A DNA stretch of 64,000 bases, taken from Octopus vulgaris. Its lineage: Eukaryota. The DNA lies in the NCBI GenBank assembly GCA_951406725.2, contig OX597821.1, positions 75,950,001 through 76,014,000 of the forward strand, in the 5' to 3' direction. Made by a program: the position numbers and the translations under genes. This document shows positions 1-64,000 of this stretch, in pieces (within the stretch, counting starts at the first letter, position 1; each line of letters starts with the position of its first letter). The notes beneath the pieces are model-generated. The model was not told where the DNA came from. It did not search any database and saw only the letters and a list, made by a program, of their open reading frames with translations.

Positions 1-86
1 GTCCGATGTATATACCGTCGCCTGAAAAGCAACGAGATGCGGATAGAACCGGAAACGAACGATTGGTTTCACAAAAGAAAGCGAAA

Positions 87-3222: not shown

Positions 3223-4154
3223 GGCAATATAGATTCGTGATTGTTTTTTAAATCTTTTCCTCCTTCCAGTAAAGTGAGAATAATCATTAGGTATCAACAG
3301 GTACAAAATACAAACAGGAATGGCTAGGATACTATCATGACTCAAGTACTCTCTAGTACGGACATGCCATTTACAGAAAATATACATTCTCCATTTATGA
3401 GTCCAGTTTTACTGCAGTGATCGTTCTGTTTTTCGGCAGTTCACTGGCTTTAAACCAGGAAACTGAAAATGTTAGATAATAATGTTGAGATGTTATCTGT
3501 ATTGGATCAGCAGCCTATTCGTGAGAGATGGTACATCTCATTCAGAGAATAACATAAAACGGGCAGTGAAAAGTGACACAGAAAACTGACACAGTTTAGG
3601 GTATCAGAAATGTTTACCCACACAATACAACTTACACGCACTCACACGCGCACACAAACAACACGCGCGAAAAGCACGATAAATGGAATAAAGACACATA
3701 TATGTATTTATATTATAATAGATATTAATTTTGCATAAAGGAATCCCATTAAACAGACGAAAAATATCATTAATATTTGAATGCTCCTAAATACATGCTA
3801 ATCTATGTACCCACCCACCCGCCCAACACATACCTACGCAAGCGCATGTACACACACACACACACACACACTTGCGTGTGTGTATGAGTATATACATATA
3901 TGTATGTATGTATATGCATATATATATATATATATCACATATTTACGTATATATATAATATATTTATATCTATGCACATATATACTGTTGATGAAGTGAG
4001 TTGACTACGTTGTGTTGCTTAATGGCGTCAACTATGCATACATGTGTACAGGACGTCACCAACAATAAACAACATGAAATACGAAAACAAATGAGTTGAA
4101 TACGCAAACAACGAGAGAAATAAATGGAAAACAAGACAAGTAACATGAAAAATG

Positions 4155-4213
4155 ACCCTTCATCAGTTGTCGGCTGCCTATCTACTCATCATTTCGAGCA
4201 ATGTTCCAAGTAA
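4155..4213 (-). ncRNA. Reordered hammerhead-like motif, copy 3 (both core strands intact, NUH strand degraded)
   Basis: Minus strand GCUC GAAA UGAU...CGACAA CUGAUGA A GGGU; homologous to 11831-11893. Confidence 0.55.
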
Positions 4214-4275
<62 letters not shown>

Positions 4276-4680: not shown

Positions 4681-4757
4681 ATAACAATATAATAAATAAA
4701 TAAAATATATGCATATATACATACATATATGTACATACTTACATCTACATGCATATA

Positions 4758-4803
<46 letters not shown>

Positions 4804-5700
4804 TACAGGACACCACAAATAAACGTAGAACACAACGAGAAACGAAAACATAAAATCAACAAGGAAACGGACTTTTTTTAACAACAAAAAAACAGAGTAC
4901 AGGACAGACAATACAAGGAAAATTCCCCTTCATCAGCTGCCCCTGGTTCGACTCAATGCGTGTTTCGAAAGTAAGGGCAGAACACGGCCAGGCCGAAGCA
5001 ATTCTTCCTGTAAAAGGAATTAAGTAAAATTCTTTTGCAGAGGGGTAAAACAAGTGACAAGAACAGGACGTAAAAGCAATACAAATGAAGAAAAAACAGT
5101 AGAAAAAACAGTACAAATAAAGAATAACATTTTTTAGGCCTAGACGGTGGAAAAATTAGTTAGAACGCATGTGAAAAATCGGCTTGCGAAAGACAGGGAA
5201 GTCGATGTATGCTTGTTGAAGCACGAAGCTGAAAGAAAGTTTTTGTAGCCCTCTGGTCAACGGCCAGAGAGAGAGGAGGAGGAGAGAGAGGAGGAGGAGA
5301 GAGAGAGAGGGGGGTGGGGAAGAAACCAGAAAGGGTGAAAAATAAGGGGGAGAGGGACAAGTAGAGAGGAAGACAGACAGGCAGGGAGGAAAGGTCAAGT
5401 AAAGAGTAAGAGTGCGCGTCATGATTATTCAAATAAAAACTTACTTGGAGAAGAGAAATAGTGAAATAACGCCTGCGTTCGGTCATATAATACCAATATA
5501 ATAAATAAAATATATGTATATATACATACATATATGTACATACTTACATCTACATGTATATATACATGCATATATATATATATATATATATATATGAGTA
5601 CAGAACACCACAAATGAACGTAGAACACAAAGAGAAACGAAAACATAAAATCAACAAGGAAACGGACGTTTTTAACAAAGAAAAAAACAAGGAAACACAC
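4680..5700 (-). mobile_element. Non-coding retroelement-like repeat with ~210-bp direct terminal repeats, carrying the reordered hammerhead motif
   Basis: 4680-4890 is repeated at ~5490-5690; interior partly homologous to 11560-12030 and 4050-4210. Confidence 0.65.
4925..4986 (-). ncRNA. Hammerhead-like ribozyme with non-circularly permuted strand order, copy 1 (best preserved)
   Basis: Minus strand CGUG U U|CUGCCCUU AC UUUC GAAA CACG CAUUGAGUCGAACC AGGGGCAG CUGAUGA A GGGG: full core plus stems I, II and III. Confidence 0.7.
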
Positions 5701-11280: not shown

Positions 11281-12030
11281 GTATATGGCTTAAAAAGCCA
11301 CATCAGACGCCATGATGGTGCTAAGGTGTAGGTACAGGAAGTGGTCAAACTCTGTATAAGGAGTAGAAAACCACCACCACACACACACATACACATACAC
11401 ATACACACACACATATATATATGCCCTTTCGTTTCCTCTCTTCCTCTCATTTGCCTCCCCTTCTCCCTCTCTCTCTTTTTCTCTCTTATCTGGCCTCCAC
11501 ATTCTTTCCTCTCCCCTTCATAGTTGTGTGTCTGTCACTTTCTCTCTCTCACTATTCCTCCTTTGCTCCTGTGGCCTCCACGTGACCACCGGTTATTCTC
11601 CTAACTTGTGCTTTTCTCTCTTTCTTCTTGCTTCAGCTCGACAGTGAAAACATACTGTTCTCTGTCTCCTGTCCAGCTTTGTTTCTTCGCCTTTACCACC
11701 ACAACCTCGACTAGGCTCCGCAGCCCTTCCTGTTTGTTTTCACTGTCCTGTTTTTGTCACCATTTTGACCCTCCGCAAGATCGCAAATTTTATTTAATTT
11801 GCTTTGCGGGAGCAGCTGTTTTATCGAAGGCATATCTTGTCGTGAATTGCTCGAGATATGGTCTAGATAAAGAGCCGACAAGTGATGAAGGGTCGTTCCT
11901 TATGTTGCTTGTCTTGTTTTCCATTTATTTCTCTGGTTGCTTGCAAAAAATAGCCCTTATTCCATGTCCTCGGACTTCGTATTATTTGTTGCTTATGTTT
12001 TGTGACGGTCTGTGCCCACATATGCATATG
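11281..12030 (+). mobile_element. Pyrimidine-rich non-coding repeat of the reordered-hammerhead family
   Basis: 11730-11950 is homologous to the reverse complement of 4900-5110 and 4050-4210. Confidence 0.65.
11831..11893 (+). ncRNA. Reordered hammerhead-like motif, copy 2 (two core substitutions)
   Basis: CAUA U C|UUGUCG UGAAUU GCUC GAGA UAUG ... CGACAA GUGAUGA A GGGU; all three stems pair. Confidence 0.65.
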
Positions 12031-12107
12031 TATATACGTAAACATCTAAGTATGTACGTATATGTATGTATATATGCATATGTATATAATTTATTGATAT
12101 TTATTAC

Positions 12108-12138
<31 letters not shown>

Positions 12139-12177
12139 CACACATATGTATGTATATATATATATATATATACAAAC

Positions 12178-12224
<47 letters not shown>

Positions 12225-12255
12225 CATGTATATATATATATATATATACACACAC

Positions 12256-12296
<41 letters not shown>

Positions 12297-26239: not shown

Positions 26240-27006
26240 TTTCTACGTTTAGTGGGAAATAGTTTTGCTTTCATTCTTTCGAGGTCGATAAAATAAGTAC
26301 CAGTTGAATACTGTGGTCACTGTAACAGACTAGTCGCCTCCCCTCAAAAACTGTAGCTCTTCTGTCAAAACTTAAAATCATTATCCTTTTCTGCTCTAGG
26401 TACGAGGCCCGAAATTTTTTTTTGGCGGGGGGAGGGGCAGTCGATTAGATCGTCCCATGTACGCAACTGGTACTTAATTTATCGACCCCAAAAGAATTAA
26501 AGGCGAAGTCGACCTCGGCGGAATTTCAACTCAGAACATAAAGACAGACGAAATACCACCAAGCATTTCGCCCGGTGTGCTAACGTTTCTTATTTCTTTA
26601 TTGCCCACAAGGAGCTAAACATAGAGGGGACAAACAAGGACAGATAGAGGGATTAAGTCGATTACGTCGACACCAGTGCGTAACTGGTACTTAATTTATC
26701 GATCCCGAAACGATGAAAGGCAAAGTCGACCTCGGCGGAATTTGAACTCAGAACGTAATGGCAGACGAAATACCTATTTCTTTACTACCCACAAGGGGCT
26801 AAACACAGAGAGCACAAACAAGGAAAGACAAACGGACTAAGTCAATTATATCGACCCCAATGCGTAACTGGTACTTATTTAGTCGACCCCGAAAGGATGA
26901 AAAGCAAAGTGGACTTCGGCGGAATTTGAACTCAGAACGTAGCGGCAGTCGAAATACCGCTGAGCATTTCGCACGACGTGCTAACGTTTCTGCCAGCTCA
27001 CCGCCT
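26240..27006. mobile_element. SINE family B: degraded + copy (26240-26380) and head-to-tail minus-strand trimer (26390-27006)
   Basis: Three successive central domains with two alternative tails. Confidence 0.9.
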
Positions 27007-28492: not shown

Positions 28493-28585
28493 GAATCCAA
28501 ACAAAGTAGAACAAGAAAAAACAATAACGTGAAGACGTGGTACAAGTACTGCATTATCAGACGTTCAGGAAAGGAAGGAAAGAGG

Positions 28586-28620
28586 ATTTAACGTTTCGAG
28601 CCTTGCACTTCTTCAGAAAT
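28586..28620 (-). ncRNA. Minimal type I hammerhead ribozyme in a Penelope-like fragment (~28490-28690)
   Basis: AUUU CUGAAGA A GUGC AAG GCUC GAAA CG U U AAAU; palindromic ACGU at stem III. Confidence 0.75.
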
Positions 28621-37989: not shown

Positions 37990-38522
37990 ATCAAATTCCT
38001 CCGAGGTCGACTTTGCCTTTCATAATTTTCGAGATCGATAAATTAAGTATCAGTTGCGTACTGGGGTCGATCTTATTGACTTGCCCCCTCCCCAAAAATT
38101 TTGAGCCTTGTGCGTAGAGTAGAAAAGAATATTTTAAAGGCGGCGAGCTGGCAGAAACGTTAGCACGCCAGGTGAAATGCTTAGCGGTATTTCGTCTGCC
38201 GTTACGTTCTGAGTTCAAATTCCGCCGACGTCGACTTTGCCTTTCATCCTTTCGGGGTCGATAAATTAAGTACCAGTTACGCACTGGGGTCGATATAATC
38301 GATTTAATCTGTTTGTCTGTCCTTGTTTGTCCTCTCTGTGTTTAGCCCCTTGTGGGTAGTAAAGAAATAGGTATTTCGTCTGTCTTTACATTCTGAGTTT
38401 AAATTCAGCCGATACTGTCGGTGTCGATAAATTAAGCACCAGTTGCGTATTGGTGTCGATCTAATCGACTTGCCCGCTCCCTCCAAAATTTTGGGCCTTG
38501 TGCCTAGAGTAAAAAAGAATAT
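37990..38522 (+). mobile_element. SINE family B tandem copies
   Basis: Truncated copy 37990-38132 and dimer 38138-38522. Confidence 0.9.
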
Positions 38523-39781: not shown

Positions 39782-39976
39782 CGATGATGATAACATCGAA
39801 AAATACCTTAGGAATTAGAACCTAGGTTCGAAATTTCCTCATGACACCTGATGAAGGCTGGAGGGTATATCAGCCGAAACATTGTGTTAACAACAAACAA
39901 GATGAGGACAAATATCTGTATAATGTAAATAATGTAAATAATGTAAATAATTCCTCATCTCTTAAATTCAGAACTG
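39667..39976 (+). mobile_element. SINE family C: tRNA-like head, (AAT)n, hammerhead-containing tail
   Basis: A box TGGCGTAGTGGTTAAG, B box GAGTTCGATT, (AAT)n, then HHR; further copies at 42633-42812 and 46530-46652. Confidence 0.85.
39843..39888 (+). ncRNA. Minimal type I hammerhead ribozyme within SINE C
   Basis: GACAC CUGAUGA A GGCUG GAGGGUAUAU CAGCC GAAA CA U U GUGUU. Confidence 0.8.
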
Positions 39977-40641: not shown

Positions 40642-40876
40642 TACCTATTTCTTTACTACCCACAAGGGGCTAAACACAGAGAGGACAAACAAGGACAGGC
40701 AGACGGATTAAGTCGATTATATCGACCCCAGTGCGTAACTGGTACTTAATTTATCGACCCCGAAAGGATGAAAGGCAAAGTCGACTCCGGCGGAATTTGA
40801 ACTCAGAACGTCACGGCAGACGAAATACCGCTAAGTATTTCCTCCAGCGTGCTAACGTTTCTGCCAGCTCGCCGCC
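40642..40876 (-). mobile_element. SINE family B with Tx1-like tail
   Basis: Near-identical to units at 26770-27006 and 38138-38370. Confidence 0.9.
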
Positions 40877-42845: not shown

Positions 42846-43284
42846 TAGTTTTATTTTTATAGCGTGCTTTCACTTCACTACCGAGCGCAGCTCTGTGTGC
42901 TTTGGGTATGTGCTGTGATTTGTTGTGATGCTCTGATGGTTATTGTATGGAAAGTGTTCTGCGTAGGATGTGTGCAGTGCCTTGTAGTGCAATTTTCTGT
43001 ATGTTATATGTGTTTGTAAGTCCTGGTGTTTTTGTTATGTATTTGTCTGAATATTTTTTTATCATGCCTAATGCACCTACTATGATAGGAATTGTCTCTG
43101 TTTTCAGATTCCACATTCTAGTTACCTCTATTTCCAGGTCTTTGTATTTTGAGAGTTTCTCCATTTCTTTTAGAGACACGTTGTCATCAGCCGGTATTGA
43201 TACATCAATTAGAAAGCATTTTTTTCTTCATGGTTTCTGACAACTATATCTGGTCTGTTGGCTTTAATTTCTCTGTCTGTGTGT
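42843..43284 (-). mobile_element. R4/Dong-like RLE LINE, short 3' fragment in (TAA)n
   Basis: RPDIVV, FLIDVSIP, EKLSKYKDL, IPIIVGALG; near-identical to 43358-43800. Confidence 0.9.
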
Positions 43285-43296
43285 TATTATTATTAA

Positions 43297-43356
<60 letters not shown>

Positions 43357-43357
43357 T

Positions 43358-45752
43358 CAGTAGTTTTATTTTTATAGCGTGCTTTCACTTCACTACCGAG
43401 CGCAGCTCTGTGTGCTTTGGGTATGTGTTTTAATTTGTTGTGATGCTCTGATGGTTATTGTATGGAAAGTGTTCTGCGTAGGATGTGTGCAGTGCCTAGT
43501 AGTGCAATTTTCTGTATGTTATATGTGTTTGTAAGTCCTGGTGTTTTTGTTATGTATTTGTCTGAATATTTTTTTTATCATGCCTAATGCACCTACTATG
43601 ATAGGAATTGTCTCTGTTTTTAGATTCCACATTCTGGTTACCTCTATTTCCAGGTCTTTGTATTTTGAAAGTTTCTCCATTTCTTTTAGAGACACGTTGT
43701 CATCTGCCGGTATTGATACATCAATTAGAAAGCATTTTTTTCTTCATTATCTCTGACAACTATATCTGGTCTGTTGGCCTTAATTTCTCTATCTGTGTGT
43801 ATCGGCATATCCCAGAGTATGGTTGCTTTCTCGTTTTCTGCGACCTTTTCTGGTGTGTGCCTATACCATCTTTTTTCTGTTGTTATTCCATAATGTTGGC
43901 ATAGCTTCCAGTGTATGTAGGTTCCAACTCTGTCATGTCTGTGAATATATTCCTTCTTAGCCATGACTGGGCAGCCAGAGATAATATGATTTATTGTTTG
44001 TTGTCCATCTCCACATATTCTGCAGTTACTTGTTATATTTCTTTTCATTACATGTTTTTGGTAATTTCTGGTGGGTGCTGCAATTAAAAATCCCACTGTC
44101 TCTGCTTTGAGTCCTGAGCTTCTCAAACATTGCTGGGATTTTTCTTTGTCTATTTCTTTTGCATTTAGTTTAGTCCAGTATTTAACATGAAGGGGTTTTT
44201 CTTGCCATCGTTTTATCATGGTTCTTAGCTGTTCTAGTTTTAGTTTGGATTTCATTTCTTTTATAGCTTTGGTCGTTTCTTCTTCTTCTTCTTCTTCTTC
44301 TTCTTCTTCTTCTTCTTCTTCTTCTTCTTCTTCTTCTTCTTCTTCTTCTTCTTCTTCTTCATATTTATTAGGTGGTATGATTTCTTGTTTGTATTTGTCA
44401 GCTTCCTTAAATACTGAGAACAGTTTTTTGTTTTGCTCGTGTTTTGCCGCTATCTGGATCAGTTTTCCTTCCTTCTGAAGTAAATATTTTTGCAGTCCTA
44501 TGGTAGTTATTTTATAGTAGTTTTTCAGCTGTATAAGGCCTCTACCACCTTCTATACGTTGTATATATAGTCTTTCTATGTCAGATTTTGGGTGATGCAT
44601 CCTAGATCCTGTCACTATTTTTCTTGTATTCCTATCTATTTTGGTCAGTTCATTTAGTGTCCAGTTAAGGATATTGTAGCTGTAACTTATAATTGGGACA
44701 CCTAAAGTGTTAATACCTATTATCTTGTTTTTAGCATTGAGCTCTGTTGTTAGTATTGATCTAAGTCGTCTATAATATTCATTTTTTTATTTTCTCTTTC
44801 ATTTGTGTGTGTTGTGTCTTATCTAGTTCATGGATTCCTAAGTATTTGTAAGTTTGGCTTTGGTCTAATTCTTTTATATCATTGTTTTATCTAGTGTGAT
44901 GTTGCTACTCTTAACTAGTTTTCCTCTTTTCAGGGTTACTTTGGCGCATTTTTCTAATCCAAATTTCATATCTATTTCTTTGGTAAATCCATGAACTGTC
45001 TTTAATAGTGTTTCCAGCTGTTTGTCATTTGCAGCGTATAGTTTTAGGTCATTCATATATAAAAGGTGGCTGATCGTTTTGCCGTAACATTTATATCCGC
45101 ATCCAGTTCTATTTTAGCATATCAGATAGAGGTGACAGTGCCAAGCAGAAAAGGAGTGGAGAGAGCGTGTCTCCCTGGAATATTCCTCTTCTAATGGGGA
45201 TGGCTTTGGTTTTCATGAGTCCCTCTTTTGTTTGCCATTTATTTATAGAGTGTCCTATGAATTTTATAATTGTTGGTGCTACTTTGTTAATGGCTAGTGT
45301 TTCGAGGATCCATGTGTGAGGGATGCTATCAAACGCAGTTTTGTAGTCGATCCAGGCCATACTGAGGCCTTTCTTCTTTCTGTGGCTGTCTTCAGTTATG
45401 GCTTTATTAATCCTTAGTTGATCTTTACAGCCATATGAGCCTTTGCGGCATCCTTTCTGCTCTTCTGGAAACAGGTTGTTTTCGTCCAGGTGCTTGTTCA
45501 ACCTTTGCGATATCACTGCAGTAAATGCCTTGTACATTGTAGGGAGACAGGTTATTGGTCTGTAGTTTTCTGGTTTTGCTGTCTCATTTGATTTGGGGAT
45601 TAAGATGGTTTTCCCCTTCGTGAGTCATTCAGGCATTGTCTCTGGCTCTGCTAGTATGTTGTTAAAATTTTCAGCCAGCTTTTTGTGCAATCCTGTTAGA
45701 TATTTCAGCCAGAAGTTGGGGATCTTGTCATGCCCAGGTGCCTTCCAGTTGC
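43358..45752 (-). mobile_element. 5'-truncated R4/Dong-like non-LTR retrotransposon (RT, CCHC knuckle, restriction-like endonuclease), pseudogenised
   Basis: KAPGHD, AWIDYKTAFDSIPH, GIFQGDTLSPLLF, YMND (for YMDD), CRIC...HIISGC, RHD, NRPDIVV; flanked by (TAA)n. Confidence 0.92.
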
Positions 45753-48529: not shown

Positions 48530-48744
48530 CAATAATAATTCTCTAAATGAGATATAGACAGTAACTGCTCCATAACATAAGGGACTAAAGCCATCTGAAT
48601 ATGGCTAGGGACAGGGCAGGGTGGTGGGGGTGTTACTGTTGCATTTAGCCCCAGGCGAACATCAACGTCGCCAGATAGGCTTGACACCATCACGGCGTCC
48701 TCTATCCTGCAAAGGGAGATAATTCCCCGATGAAGCGGAAACCA

Positions 48745-48789
48745 CACACGGACCTAGGTTTCAAGGTGTTTGCCTATTATCAACGTATG
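48745..48789 (-). ncRNA. Type I hammerhead, U3-A8 core variant (left arm)
   Basis: Reverse complement of 49057-49101. Confidence 0.75.
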
Positions 48790-49056
48790 GTAGGCGCCGC
48801 TTCCTCGACGAACAACCCACTCTGCAGGATATTTATATATAGATTTTCAAGCAAAATACATTTGCTGATTTCGAAAATCTGTTCGACAGCAATAATAATT
48901 CTCTAAATGAGGGACGCCGTGATGGTGTCAAGCCTATCTGGCGACGTCAAGCCTATCTGGCGAACAGATTTTCGAAATCAGCAAATGTATTTTGCTTGAA
49001 AATCTATATATAAATATCCTGCAGAGTGGGTTGTTCGTCGAGGAAGCGGCGCCTAC

Positions 49057-49101
49057 CATACGTTGATAATAGGCAAACACCTTGAAACCTAGGTCCGTGT
49101 G
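49057..49101 (+). ncRNA. Type I hammerhead, U3-A8 core variant (right arm)
   Basis: CAUACG UUGAUAA U AGG CAAACA CCU U GAAA CCUAGG UC|CGUGUG. Confidence 0.75.
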
Positions 49102-49347
49102 TGGTTTCCGCTTCATCGGGGAATTATCTCCCTTTGCAGGATAGAGGACGCCGTGATGGTGTCAAGCCTATCTGGCGACGTTGATGTTCGCCTGGGGCTA
49201 AATGCAACAGTAACACCCCCACCACCCTGCCCTGTCCCTAGCCATATTCAGATGGCTTTAGTCCCGTATGTTATATATATATATATATATATATACATTC
49301 ATACATACATACGCACTCAAACATACACATATACATATGTAGGTGTG

Positions 49348-51253: not shown

Positions 51254-52643
51254 TGCCATTGCACAGCTTCTAACGCTGGAGATGTACTACGGTGTCAGCT
51301 GTTCACTACCTGTGAACTAAGGTAACACTTCTTATTTTACGAGCACCTTTCGGAGTATTCGTGCAGTTCCAAGCAGTTCTATTTTCTGCAAGTGCGCCAC
51401 CCTTATTGCAGCCCCTATTTGTTACACGTACTACTGGAGATTTTTGCTCACTGTTCCCTGAGCTCCGATAATTATTGGACCCCAACTGCTTAACTTCCCA
51501 AGATAACCTGTCATATCTTTCGACTTTTCTTTCTTCCTTATCGCATACCATGTTGTCAGCTGGACACGCTATATCTATGATTCAGCATACTTTGTTTACT
51601 TTCTCAATTAAGACTATGTCCGCCTTCCTATTCTCAATCTCATAGTCGCACTGAATCATAAAATCCCATAGGATTTTTGCAATTCTATTTTCGACGATAC
51701 CTTCAGTTTAGTGGTCGTACCAACTTTTTACTCTGTCAAGTTCATACGTGTTGCTAAGTGTCCAATAGACAAGCCTGGCTATATTGTCGTGGCGTCTCTT
51801 ATATTCCTTCTGGACTAGTGGCGTACACTGGCTGGTAATATGCCATACGGTTTCACCCTTTTGTCCACAGATTTTGTCACTTTCTGATATGTTGTCTATT
51901 CTGTATTTTATGTAGTTTCTTCTTAGTGCTTGCTCTTGGGTAGCACAGATTAGAGCTTCCGTTCCCGGTTTTAAATCACTTTCAGTCATCCATCTTTTTT
52001 CTCTGTCTGTCTTATCTTCAACATCCCTATGAAATTGACCATGCATTCTTTTCTTTACCCACCGATTTTCAATTTCATTCGTTTTCAATTTCTTGCATAA
52101 TCCTTTATTTTTGCAATCTTTCATAATACACAAGCCTGACTTTGTTCTAGTAATAGCGGTTCTGTGGCATTTCTTAGATACCATGTTATGTTGTTTTCTT
52201 CTGCTCTAATGCTGTGTTCGCATCCAATAAGTCCTCTTCCCCCTCTTTTTCATACAGTCTATCTGTGTTACTTTTTGGGTGGAGTAATCCATATCTAGTT
52301 AGCAACTTCCTTGTCTTTCTGTCTAAGCTGTTTAGTTCGTCTATTGTCCATGCGATTACCCCTGCTCTATATCTAAGGGGTGAAACCGCCCAGGTGCTGA
52401 TAGCTTCGATCTTATTCTGTCCATTTAATTTCGACTTAAGGATCAGTCTCAGTCTGCGTAAGTACTCCATCTTAAATTTTTCTGTCATTTCTTTCTCTAT
52501 CAATTTATCCTTTTCGAAAATCCCAAGTACTTGTAGCCCGTCTCTTCTATCTGCTTCAAAACCTCCCCCGATTGTATCGTTAGTCCGTCCATACATTTGA
52601 TTTTGCCTCTCTTCACCATACTTTCTCAGTCCGAACTCCATTC
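51254..52643 (-). mobile_element. Second R4/Dong-like family, 3' part
   Basis: MEFGL, RLRLILKSKLNG, LHPKSNTDRLY, MHGQF, RRHDNIAR; 3' end abuts (TAA)n. Confidence 0.88.
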
Positions 52644-52712
52644 TATCATCATCATCATCATCATCATCGTCGTCGTCGTCGTCTTCGTCGTCGTAGTCGT
52701 CGTCGTCATCAT

Positions 52713-52744
<32 letters not shown>

Positions 52745-52817
52745 TCGTCATCGTCGTCATCATCATCATCGTCATCGTCATCATCATCATCATTATCATC
52801 ATCATCATCATCATCAT

Positions 52818-53874
52818 TTCTTTTTATTTCAGGTTGTTGGAACTGCTGGAATCTTGCATGCGTAGCGGGCTTGCTGCCTGCAGCCCACGATACCATGCCG
52901 TCTGTTCTTTTCGACTATCTAATACTTTCCTACTTATTCTGGCTGTGCCAAGGAGACAAACCTTTTTTAACAGTTCTGCTGGGAACTCTATACCTATTTC
53001 CTATACATTCCTCTTGATGCCTTCTGATATTATTCCCAAAGACCCAACAATGATTGGCACTATCTTCACCTTCTTCATTTTCCATAGCCAGACTATTTCG
53101 TACTTAAGAGGGTTGTATTTATTTACTTTTTCATCCTCCTTAATGAATATTCGTGAGTTAAAGGGGCATGCAACATCAACTATATAGCATATGTGGTGTA
53201 TCGTGTCCACCACCACTACGTCCGGTCTGTTATACTCTAGTTCGTGATCTGCAAGTGCGTCACCCTTATTGCATCCCCTATTTGTTCCACGTACTTCTCG
53301 ATATTTTTGCTCACTGTTCCCTGAGTTCCGACAATTATTGGTACTACTGCTATCTTTTTCATCGACCACAACTGCTTAACTTCCCAAGCTAACCCTGTCA
53401 TATCTCTCGACTTTTCTTTCTTCTTTTTGCTAGTCTCCGACTCCGCCACTCTCTGCGGTTCGTGCTCATAACGCGTCTTGCTTCTCTCTAGCCCTCACTT
53501 TTCTCACAGTTTCCAATGTAGCACTTTCGCTACGTGATCGTGTTGCAACAACTTGAAGCGGTTTGGGGCAGGTCTAGGGCATTTGCACATGATATGGGCA
53601 ATAGTTTTATCCAGTCTATTGCAGATGTGGCATAGCGGAGATAGTTGCTCATTACTCAGATTGACCCACCAGTCCGTGTCCAGAACTTGGTCCTGCGGCG
53701 CCAGTATAATGCTTTCGATCTCTGTTTTTAGGGTTCCTTTCATCAGCCAATCCCACCTATTTTTTCCAGCAGCGTCTGTTGTGGTTACATGGAATTGATT
53801 GAGTAGTCCCTTCTTGCGTAATTCTTCTTCATGTTCATGTCCTTTTCGTACGTTTTCCTTTTGCTTAATTCTTC

Positions 53875-53967
<93 letters not shown>

Positions 53968-54070
53968 CATCATCGTCGTCGTCGTTGTTGTTGTTGTTGT
54001 TGTTGTTGTTGTTGCTGTTGTTTCGGACATGATACCATGCTTCAGTCCCACCTCCTTAAGTTTTTGAAAT
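52818..54070 (-). mobile_element. Mosaic of R4/Dong-like fragments (third family 52818-53243 and 53500-54070; second family 53244-53425)
   Basis: NRPDVVVVD...IVDVACP...EKVNKY; CHIC...HIMCKC; HDHVAK. Confidence 0.82.
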
Positions 54071-61997: not shown

Positions 61998-62826
61998 TTG
62001 TTGGTTGGCATCCTTTCAGTCTCGGGAGACCATGGAGTTGCGCATAAAGTAGTCTAGTCCTGCTTTTATATTTCATGTCCTGATACATTTCCTGCTGTGG
62101 CTGTGTAGTCCTATCCTGGACAAACACTCCCTCTGGCAGGTACCGCAAATGTAGCGAAGACTGTTCCTGGCTGGTTGTAATGCCATAGTCTCTTGTTGGC
62201 GTCTCTTCTTTTCTTTCCATTTCTCCTCTCTCTCTCTGTCACTCCTTTGTATTCCCTCTTTTACGGTACGTCGCCATTCTCCACGGTTGCCGGCAACTGC
62301 CTCCCAACCGCTAATATTGATGTTGCAGACCTTCATGTCCCTTTTGCAAACATCCTTGTAACGTAAGATCGGTCTACCCACAGACCTAGCACCCCTAGCA
62401 AGTTCTCCGTAGAGTATGTCCTTGGGGATTCTGCCATCTTTCATACGGCTAACATGCCCAAGCCATCTCATACGTCTTTGTGTGAGGAGTGCAAACATGC
62501 TTGGTATTCCTGCTTGCCTGAGGACATCTTTGTTGGGGATATGATTCTGGCATTTGATGCGGAGGATTTTTCGGAGGCAGCGCAGGTGAAAGATGTTTAG
62601 GCGACGCTCTTGGCGTGTGTATAGCGTCCAGGTCTCACTTCCATACAGTAGAGTGCTGAGTACACATACCTGGTAGATCTTCATTTTCGTGGTCTTGGTC
62701 AGCTTATTGTTGTCCCAAGCCCGTTTGGAGAGTTGGGCCATCGCAGCAGCTGCCTTGCCAATGCGTATATTGAGCTCAGCGTCAAGGGATAGGTTGTAGG
62801 TGACGGTAGAGCCCAGATAGGTAAAC
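61998..62826 (-). mobile_element. 5'-truncated RTE-clade (BovB-like) LINE with an uninterrupted C-terminal reading frame
   Basis: FTYLGS...RIGKAAAA...LLYGSETW...RWLGHVSRM.DGRIPK.ILYGEL...C..C.R.C.SRIGL.SH; tail GGATGCCAACCAAC. Confidence 0.95.
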
Positions 62827-62923
62827 ATATATATATATTTACCCAGATAGGTAAATATATATATATATATATATATACATAATATATGTATGTACATATA
62901 TACAAGCATACAATATACATTAT

Positions 62924-62958
62924 AGGCGCAGGAGTGGCTGTGTCGTAAGTAGCTTGCT
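62924..62958 (+). mobile_element. SINE family A head, cut off by the downstream element
   Basis: AGGCGCAGGAGTGGCTGTGTCGTAAGTAGCTTGCT. Confidence 0.8.
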
Positions 62959-64000
62959 AACGCACATGCGCAATTAGTCAGTTGCTTCCTGTTCAGCCAG
63001 AGTGGACGCGAGTCAATCAGCTCCGTCCAATTAAAGAAAAAAGACCAAAAACGGAAAGTTGTCGAGGTAAGTGATTTTGTTTATTGTGAGTTGGGCATAA
63101 TTTATTGCGTGCCAATTATTATTTCAGTAAGTTGTGTCCAACTCTGCGACAATTTCGCCTGCTCTCGGCGGCTGCTGTTTTTGTGTTCATTGAAAAAAAA
63201 AGAAAAAACAGTGGAGGGGCGTATCCTCAGAATTCAATACAGTTACTGTTAAAATTACCGTTGGCGGTAGCCAGTGCTGTGTTTGGGTTTGTTGAATTTA
63301 TTCCCTTGTCAGAGTACTTCGCAAGAAAATTATAAAAATAAGCCACTATTGAATTACCTTTCGGACCCATTTTTGTGGAGGTTGTGTTGCAGTTGCGGCG
63401 TTCTAGGTTCAACCCAGGCCGGGAGTACCGCAAGGCCAGAATATTTTTGCTGTGTTTTTTCTGTTTATTAACTTTCTTTTGAACTTCATTTAACCCCCCT
63501 TTTGTTTTTTTTCTTTATTGCGACTTTCCGTTAATTTCTTCCCTTCTGTTGTGCTTTCTCCTTTTTGTTTTTTCAAAAATCTATCAAATTTTATTTGGAC
63601 TTTTGAACTTTTTTCTTCCTGCTTTTGAGTTTAATTTGAATATATTTAAAAAAAAACATGGCAATGAAAAATAACAAAATTTTGGAGTGGGAAATCATAC
63701 CACCTAAAAAGTGGTTAAAGACCGTGAAGATAGGACGGTGGTGTTGAGAACCTACTCCAAGGCACTTGACACCATCGCCCTATTCGAAAAGACGGCAATT
63801 GAAAAGGAGTTGGAAGAGTATTTGCCAACAATTAAATTCATTTCCAGAGGTGTCAAATATGCAACGGTGTGGTTGCTATTTGACACCCCTGAAGAGGCTT
63901 GCAAATTTGCTAGCAAACCCCTGGAGGATAAGGAAATCTTATTCCTGCCCACGTACAAAAAAAAGAAATTGATGAAAGCTTGGATTTGCGGACTGCCACC
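62959..64000 (+). mobile_element. Probable 5' UTR and start of ORF1 of a Tx1/L1-like LINE (runs off the window)
   Basis: ATG 63658; after a 1-nt shift in the A-run at 63706-63710 the frame stays open to the end (DRTVVLRTYS...FDTPEEA...KAWICGLP), resembling ORF1 RRM-type regions. Confidence 0.55.

Follow-up and report, generated by a model that had tools for sequence, protein, structure and literature searches.

The closest described systems are the type-SGC hammerheads (HRIMA-1 and its variants), whose S-G-C block order was proven in vitro, according to the available text of Eckert et al. 2023 (PMC10085705), which assumes CUGAnGA to be contiguous with its stem II arm. Octopus is mentioned neither in that text nor, by term search, in the supplement. 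Endonuclease-bearing Penelope-like elements are characterized in the accessible parts of PMC8557442 by tail, tandem, inversion, and (TA)n features; in the same source, the Naiad elements have no canonical hammerhead, and eight of them, Naiad_Ovul included, are marked 'HHR_half_core'. For a further Penelope-like element, Poseidon, hammerhead cleavage in vitro required protein and was dispensable (PMC11167929, available portion).

We analyzed a 64,000-nucleotide stretch of the Octopus vulgaris genome (the window), in which a sequence-only reading had proposed a reordered hammerhead at 11831-11893. Our preferred explanation, with a probability of about 0.72, is that this site belongs to a mutated and likely inactive copy of a predicted four-strand hammerhead near the 3' end of a non-coding, likely trans-mobilized Penelope-like element. 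The interest lies in the family and not in the window copy.

Structure and decay of the window copy

The proposal of a reordered hammerhead-like motif within a repeat family was borne out. The core pattern TCGAAA-N18-32-CTGAYGAAGGG gave 4,854 exact matches in the source genome (2.8 Gb in 227 contigs) versus 2 in the reversed control. The letters were also correctly read: CATAT-C-TTGTCG at 11831-11842, GCTC-GAGA-TATG at 11849-11860, and CGACAA-GTGATGA-A-GGGT at 11876-11893, with C17 at 11836. The features of this copy, all on the plus strand except the unstranded (TA)n tract, are as follows.

11426..12075, plus: non-coding element copy of subfamily B, 5'-truncated and lying between microsatellites (aligned with the B majority over 647 positions, 59 of them mismatched)
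11810..11814, plus: fourth strand GAGCA, predicted 5' side of stem II, supplying G10.1 (covariation, scan, and energies)
11816..11830, plus: CTGTTTT, the 5' arm of the stem III extension helix, and a GA-containing internal loop (subfamily majorities, by eye)
11831..11842, plus: cleavage-site block made up of a stem III arm, AUC with the cut predicted to follow C11836, and a stem I arm
11848..11860, plus: stem II arm UGCUC, GAAA (here GAGA, A14G at 11855), and stem III arm
11861..11874, plus: GA-containing loop, and the 3' arm of the helix that lengthens stem III, 2 of whose 7 pairs are disrupted in the window copy
11876..11888, plus: stem I arm CGACAA and CUGAUGA (here GUGAUGA, C3G at 11882)
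11889..11900, plus: short post-core hairpin AGGG/UCCU, which takes in the GGGU once assigned to stem II (predicted fold, 85 of 88 cells paired)
12059..12296: 3'-terminal (TA)n tract, the insertion target

Both core substitutions that had been claimed, A14G and C3G, are real. The expectation that the subfamily consensus would be complete was correct as well: the majority reads CGUAU-C-UUGUCG / GCUC GAAA UACG / CGACAA CUGAUGA, so that GAAA and CUGAUGA are restored and the cleavage-site block is present with both arms. Among the 29 relatives of the window copy (L002-L030), GAAA was found in 26 and CUGANGA in 23. The family thus carries the elements that define a hammerhead core (CUGANGA, GAAA, A15.1-U16.1, and H17), which the window copy, taken alone, does not. 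Since C3G abolishes cleavage in another Penelope hammerhead (PMC11167929, available portion), the window copy is likely dead, an ordinary mutated remnant.

The stem III letters CAUAU/AUAUG were as described, but their interpretation as compensation within the window copy is probably wrong. They lie two CpG transitions from the subfamily's own consensus, CGUAU/AUACG, and these transitions occur singly in 5 and 4 of the 29 relatives. About 0.7 double changes would be expected by chance among 30 copies, and one was seen. Because the single-change rates predict about one double case in 30, the double change is probably neutral CpG decay.

Further copies were found in the window. A relaxed-core S-G-C descriptor detected the site at 11831-11893 and an intact second site at 4922-4989 on the minus strand.

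4913..5008, minus: subfamily A ribozyme motif with intact core (descriptor)
4690..5700, minus: subfamily A unit, with the 3' part of a second unit ahead of it, forming a partial tandem (by eye)
3950..4216 (3' limit approximate), minus: subfamily C copy with no cleavage-site strand and an inverted tail piece ahead of it

The last copy had been cited as a relative at 4155-4213 (minus) with GAAA and CUGAUGA intact. Its G and C blocks are there, but it belongs to a different subfamily (C, with a UGAG-type stem III arm), is 5'-truncated, and has no cleavage-site strand; it starts some 9 nt past the predicted cut, on the 3' side, and adjoins (TA)n. We also observed truncated copies whose 5' junction holds, in reverse complement, the tail end (TCCAAGTAAGT), in effect a tiny inverted copy (window 4203-4216, minus; L146 and L243). 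A perfect splice-donor-like motif, CAA-GTAAGT, ends the tail in each unit and stands at the unit start, for example at about 5435-5450 (minus).

Rfam, whose hammerhead models are of types I-III, gave no hammerhead match at E ≤ 10 for either window site; among the 150 of 362 matches listed from its whole-window scan, most were microRNA models on microsatellites. A type-I (CGS) descriptor gave no matches in the window and in loci L001-L090. Separately, ordinary type-I minimal hammerhead motifs of Penelope-like elements lie at 39836-39895 (plus), a member of a very abundant family, and at about 28570-28616 (minus). The window also holds what we take to be broken open reading frames of non-LTR retrotransposons, R4/Dong-like and RTE-like by motif (43100-45650, 51700-54060, and 62076-63080, all minus), an inverted repeat at 48572-49274 with 318-nt arms that are 99% complementary and separated by 67 nt, and two 184-nt units in tandem at 26591-26958, with the same repeat inverted at 38122-38412 and 40642-40876.

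Covariation of the four strands

In an alignment of 22 copies chosen to span the subfamilies, 9 of the 11 pairs of stems I and III changed on both sides, none of 500 shuffles reached the score, and slid controls paired at 39-56%. The two stems covary across about ten subfamilies. Pairing had been said to persist despite turnover in all three stems, and this holds for stems I and III; the pairing GCUC/GGGU, proposed as stem II, showed only one-sided changes (its fourth pair is gapped in 14 of 22 rows, and its majority comparison is G-C versus U-G).

An unguided helix scan of a longer alignment returned as its top stem the 5' arm of the GAAA block with a strand 25 nt upstream of the cut. All 110 cells of this helix were paired, and 3 of its 5 pairs changed on both sides; in the window it corresponds to GAGCA (11810-11814) with UGCUC (11848-11852), which pairs the same arm as GCUC/GGGU. 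The original stem II assignment was not upheld. The reordering of blocks, described as Z-Y-X, is correct and had already appeared in print as type SGC (PMC10085705), but the plain three-strand wiring is not, because the covarying partner of stem II is an upstream strand outside 11831-11893, and four strands are involved. Since this strand builds stem II, A9 would not be followed by G10.1 along the backbone. For the four-strand fold as a whole, 95% of 439 cells were paired, 12 of 20 pairs were two-sided, none of 500 shuffles reached the score, and slid controls paired at 45-53%; covariation counts include relatedness among the copies. Stem II occurs in four sequences (GAAGG/CCUUC, GAGCA/UGCUC, GACACC/GGUGUC, and GGCUG/CAGCC), and every one of the eight subfamily majorities has C, A, or U as H17. 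Across 372 loci that had been selected for carrying these repeats, strict matches numbered 96, with 0 in the reversed sequence. At the level of aligned sequences, it is shown that the family keeps a predicted hammerhead core whose pairs are ordered as stem II 5' strand, cleavage-site block, GAAA block, and CUGAUGA block, and four-strand hammerhead wiring is the most likely architecture.

Stem III appears to be extended by a further helix whose arms, by eye, change together between subfamilies, with only 9 of 30 groups beating shuffles at p ≤ 0.05. A kink-turn consists of a 3-nt bulge followed by tandem G-A/A-G. Compared by eye with this pattern, the loop fits in Naiad, in a third family described below, and in subfamily B; GA/GA without the standard bulge is present in A2, C, and D, and the pattern is absent from A and A4. 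A search for an extra helix connecting the far sides of stems I and II gave 0 two-sided cells for the 5' flank with the 3' tail, and this closing helix was dropped for lack of covariation; one other 4-bp candidate had 7.

A type-GCS reading with a downstream U-rich strand gave 45 descriptor matches and was rejected because stem III extends only 2 bp beyond the A-U pair in most of them. Among 114 pattern matches in IMG/VR, none had the S-G-C pairings.

Repeat family and host element

The first search of the source genome gave 2,566 candidates for the stretch 11760-11960 and 3,095 for 4860-5060. Clustering of 176 of 253 copies (the other 77, 5'-truncated, were left out by the motif filter) yielded subfamilies A, A2-A4, B (window copy), B2, C (the copy at 4155), and D, with several singletons. 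Mean divergence from the majority, among the best-matching copies, was 6.1% for B and 2.0% for A. The units are about 800-900 nt long and are arranged in tandem or head to head. Seventy A-type copies extend to the unit junction; 23 of them stop 36-65 nt beyond it and 2 continue into a second unit, as counted by eye, with 9 pattern matches found to be false.

Partial tandems, inverted copies, a tail (for which the criterion is 30-40 nt), and a microsatellite target were all found in the short element, as in endonuclease-bearing Penelope-like elements. The tandem unit has no open reading frame, and the hallmarks of autonomous Naiads (N-terminal GIY-YIG, CxC, DKA, and RT) were not found in it. 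On these features, the host is a non-coding Penelope-like element of about 800-900 nt.

Two subfamily B copies (L023:1790-1810 and L253:1440-1470) are joined straight to Neptune-like RT fragments, and in L253 the same-strand run from tail into RT suggests a template switch. A young Penelope family, which we take to be Neptune-like by its motifs (L077, L121-L125, and L132), has many open frames of 1,000-1,200 aa and 4,874 candidates, and is a possible trans partner of the short units. As a carrier of the motif, the intact Neptune-like family was rejected, six loci being without the four-strand motif; the single Neptune-like locus read from end to end carries a minimal motif of type-I-like form and does not resemble the short units in sequence.

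The four-strand arrangement was also recognized outside the short family. By eye, the 3' end of Naiad_Ovul in the supplement of PMC8557442 contains GACACC/GGUGUC, AUGG-UA-CUGCCC, GAAA-CCAU, and GGGCAG-CUGAUGA; the supplement entry preceding it, with the same motif, is probably Naiad_Obim. In Naiad_Esco, stems I and III stand, by eye, in S-G-C order. The Naiad_Ovul motif has 239 exact copies in the source genome, and Naiad-type RT remnants lie upstream on the same strand in 2 of 30 Naiad-motif loci, one of them with DKAA. A blastn comparison of the Naiad 3' region with the window returned only microsatellite matches and no non-repeat similarity, so the Naiad link rests on architecture. A third short family with unrelated stems (GGCUG/CAGCC) and the same four-strand wiring gave 5,336 exact matches versus 0 in the control (loci L507-L518 and L131:9250-9340), and has a clear kink-turn-like loop. 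Three sequence-unrelated families have one wiring in common.

5' ends of genomic copies

To locate the 5' ends of copies, we used anchor sequences free of ribozyme sequence and situated about 160 nt 3' of the predicted cut. The sample, taken in genome order, comprised 92 copies from 1,456 A-type matches and 90 from 140 B-type ones; the subfamily C 3' pattern had only 10 sites and was left out. All 182 mapped flanks were distinct. In subfamily A, 36 of 92 ends fell at 0..29 relative to the cut, versus 1 at -30..-1 and 2 at 30..59; in subfamily B, the best 20-nt window started at -8 and held 21 of 90 ends. The end rate in -5..24 was 9.8 times (A) and 4.8 times (B) that outside, and none of 5,000 constant-hazard simulations reached either value; these windows were picked after the data had been seen, a choice covered by the scan simulation. 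With A and B pooled, the 35-nt window -5..29 held 59 of 182 ends, and the neighboring windows of equal length held 4 and 7.

Subfamily B had 10 of 90 ends scored in -30..-1, some blurred by TA-like letters and at least three (-10, -8, and -5) that look real, and its asymmetry, taken alone, was not significant (p 0.42). TA microhomology shapes insertion junctions, and the empty -48..-2 zone in A may result in part from a lack of it. Starts at 0..+10 were found at only 2 of 30 Naiad loci and 2 of 12 third-family loci, for patterns that require the GAAA block. Overall, the pile-up of 5' ends just past the predicted cut suggests that the motif likely cuts in the animal.

A fold that is real and is not, or is no longer, catalytic could also leave such a pile-up if it were bound by the element's protein and stalled reverse transcription or triggered template switching. 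The ends peak at +5..+20, inside the motif and offset from the cut, with a few upstream, and the dispensability of the Poseidon hammerhead in vitro would accord with this (PMC11167929, available portion). However, a stall on intact RNA would be expected at the structure's 3' edge (+30..+55), which accounts for only 5 of the 182 ends, and 32 of the 59 ends in -5..29 lie beyond the stem II arm on its 5' side, where the polymerase would have no further helix to encounter; this favors a genuine RNA end at the cut from which some bases were lost. In addition, families whose stems are unrelated retain the core bases and obey the NUH rule. We consider a non-catalytic fold unlikely.

Choice of stem II and proposed mechanism

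Alternatively, the motif could be a plain type-SGC hammerhead in which GCUC/GGGU forms stem II after a one-base bulge and the upstream strand acts as an inhibitor or an alternative fold. In vitro proof exists for type SGC (PMC10085705, available text), and the GCUC/GGGU pairing is possible at 4 bp in 63 of 79 short-family matches and in 27 of 30 subfamily B copies. The last, however, contain only one or two Watson-Crick pairs, two of the four pairs in GCUC/GGGU being G-U, whereas all five upstream pairs form in 23 of the 30 copies and are fully Watson-Crick in 20. Predicted duplex energies for the upstream and rival stems were -5.4 versus -1.5 kcal/mol in B and -4.6 versus 0.0 in A. GCUC/GGGU is reduced to 2 bp in 12 of 13 Naiad-type matches and has no two-sided change, as opposed to the three covarying positions of the upstream strand. 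The G residues after CUGAUGA fit instead the conserved short hairpin, which itself has no two-sided change. The plain type-SGC arrangement is quite improbable. Chance resemblance passed down in a repeat is barely credible: the window copy is defective, CpG decay can explain the double change in its stem III, and nested folding, which misses the knotted core, gave z-scores of -1.85 to 0.43, but covariation, the strict matches absent from reversed sequence, and the wiring common to three unrelated families argue against it.

For the four-strand hammerhead, we propose the following course. The non-coding unit would likely depend for its mobility on a protein acting in trans, either Naiad-type or otherwise Penelope-like. 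Its transcripts would fold into the knotted core and be cut after H17, and the stem III extension, with its kink-turn-like loop in Naiad and one short family, would bring the far end to stem I. The 3' cleavage product, minus 0-25 nt at its 5' end, may often be the template that is reverse-transcribed into (TA)n, and uncut RNA would give rise to longer copies. We infer that the family motif works like a hammerhead. We lean slightly toward the broader view that a naturally active four-strand hammerhead is the 'missing' Naiad ribozyme and that its cut sets the 5' end of about one-third of the insertions of the non-coding passengers.

If this is true, it would account for the failure of descriptor searches to find Naiad ribozymes and would provide genome-scale evidence of in vivo cleavage by a Penelope-type hammerhead. 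The 5'-end profile predicts an exact RNA end and so offers a direct test of in vivo cutting.

Comparison with known systems

In the open-access literature, with subscription journals outside the coverage, no report of four-strand wiring was found, nor was a tested precedent for a backbone break between A9 and G10.1; the sources compared include the available parts of PMC4209133, PMC13282606, and PMC3088659. The circularly permuted block order of hammerhead types I-III was not found at either window site with the Rfam models at E ≤ 10.

Like Naiad elements, the short element has (TA)n targets, tails, and tandem and inverted copies (PMC8557442, accessible parts), and the Naiad_Ovul 3' end shares with it the four-strand wiring, the Naiad stem I sequence being that of subfamily A. 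In contrast, the short element has no open reading frame, and no similarity to Naiad was detected outside the motif. The known type I hammerheads of Penelope-like units resemble the octopus motif in their position near the 3' end and in the extra base after CUGAUGA, but they have almost no helix III and are thought to act as dimers, whereas the octopus motif, with its 5-bp extended helix III, could fold as a monomer. Animal non-LTR retrozymes, as presented in the accessible portion of bioRxiv 10.64898/2026.07.22.740005, are likewise non-coding, hammerhead-bearing, Penelope-derived, and sometimes tandem. They are defined by type I hammerheads in tandem arrays, whereas the octopus units are mostly dispersed and 5'-truncated, and a type I hammerhead in each tandem unit was not found.

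The family is close to published type SGC in its cleavage-site/GAAA/CUGAnGA block order, pseudoknotted core, and conserved bases. The examples in the available text of PMC10085705 come mainly from metatranscriptomes and metagenomes, whereas the octopus family comprises thousands of genomic repeats in an animal, with stem III extended. In published block C, the stem II arm follows directly after CUGAnGA; in the octopus family, this arm appears as a separate upstream strand, split from the CUGAUGA strand. The S, G, and C order is present, but we did not assign the family to type SGC, because a contiguous block C was tested for and was not found. With the backbone broken between A9 and G10.1, the predicted fold lies outside the published six-permutation scheme and, if true, would widen hammerhead topologies beyond the three-block scheme.
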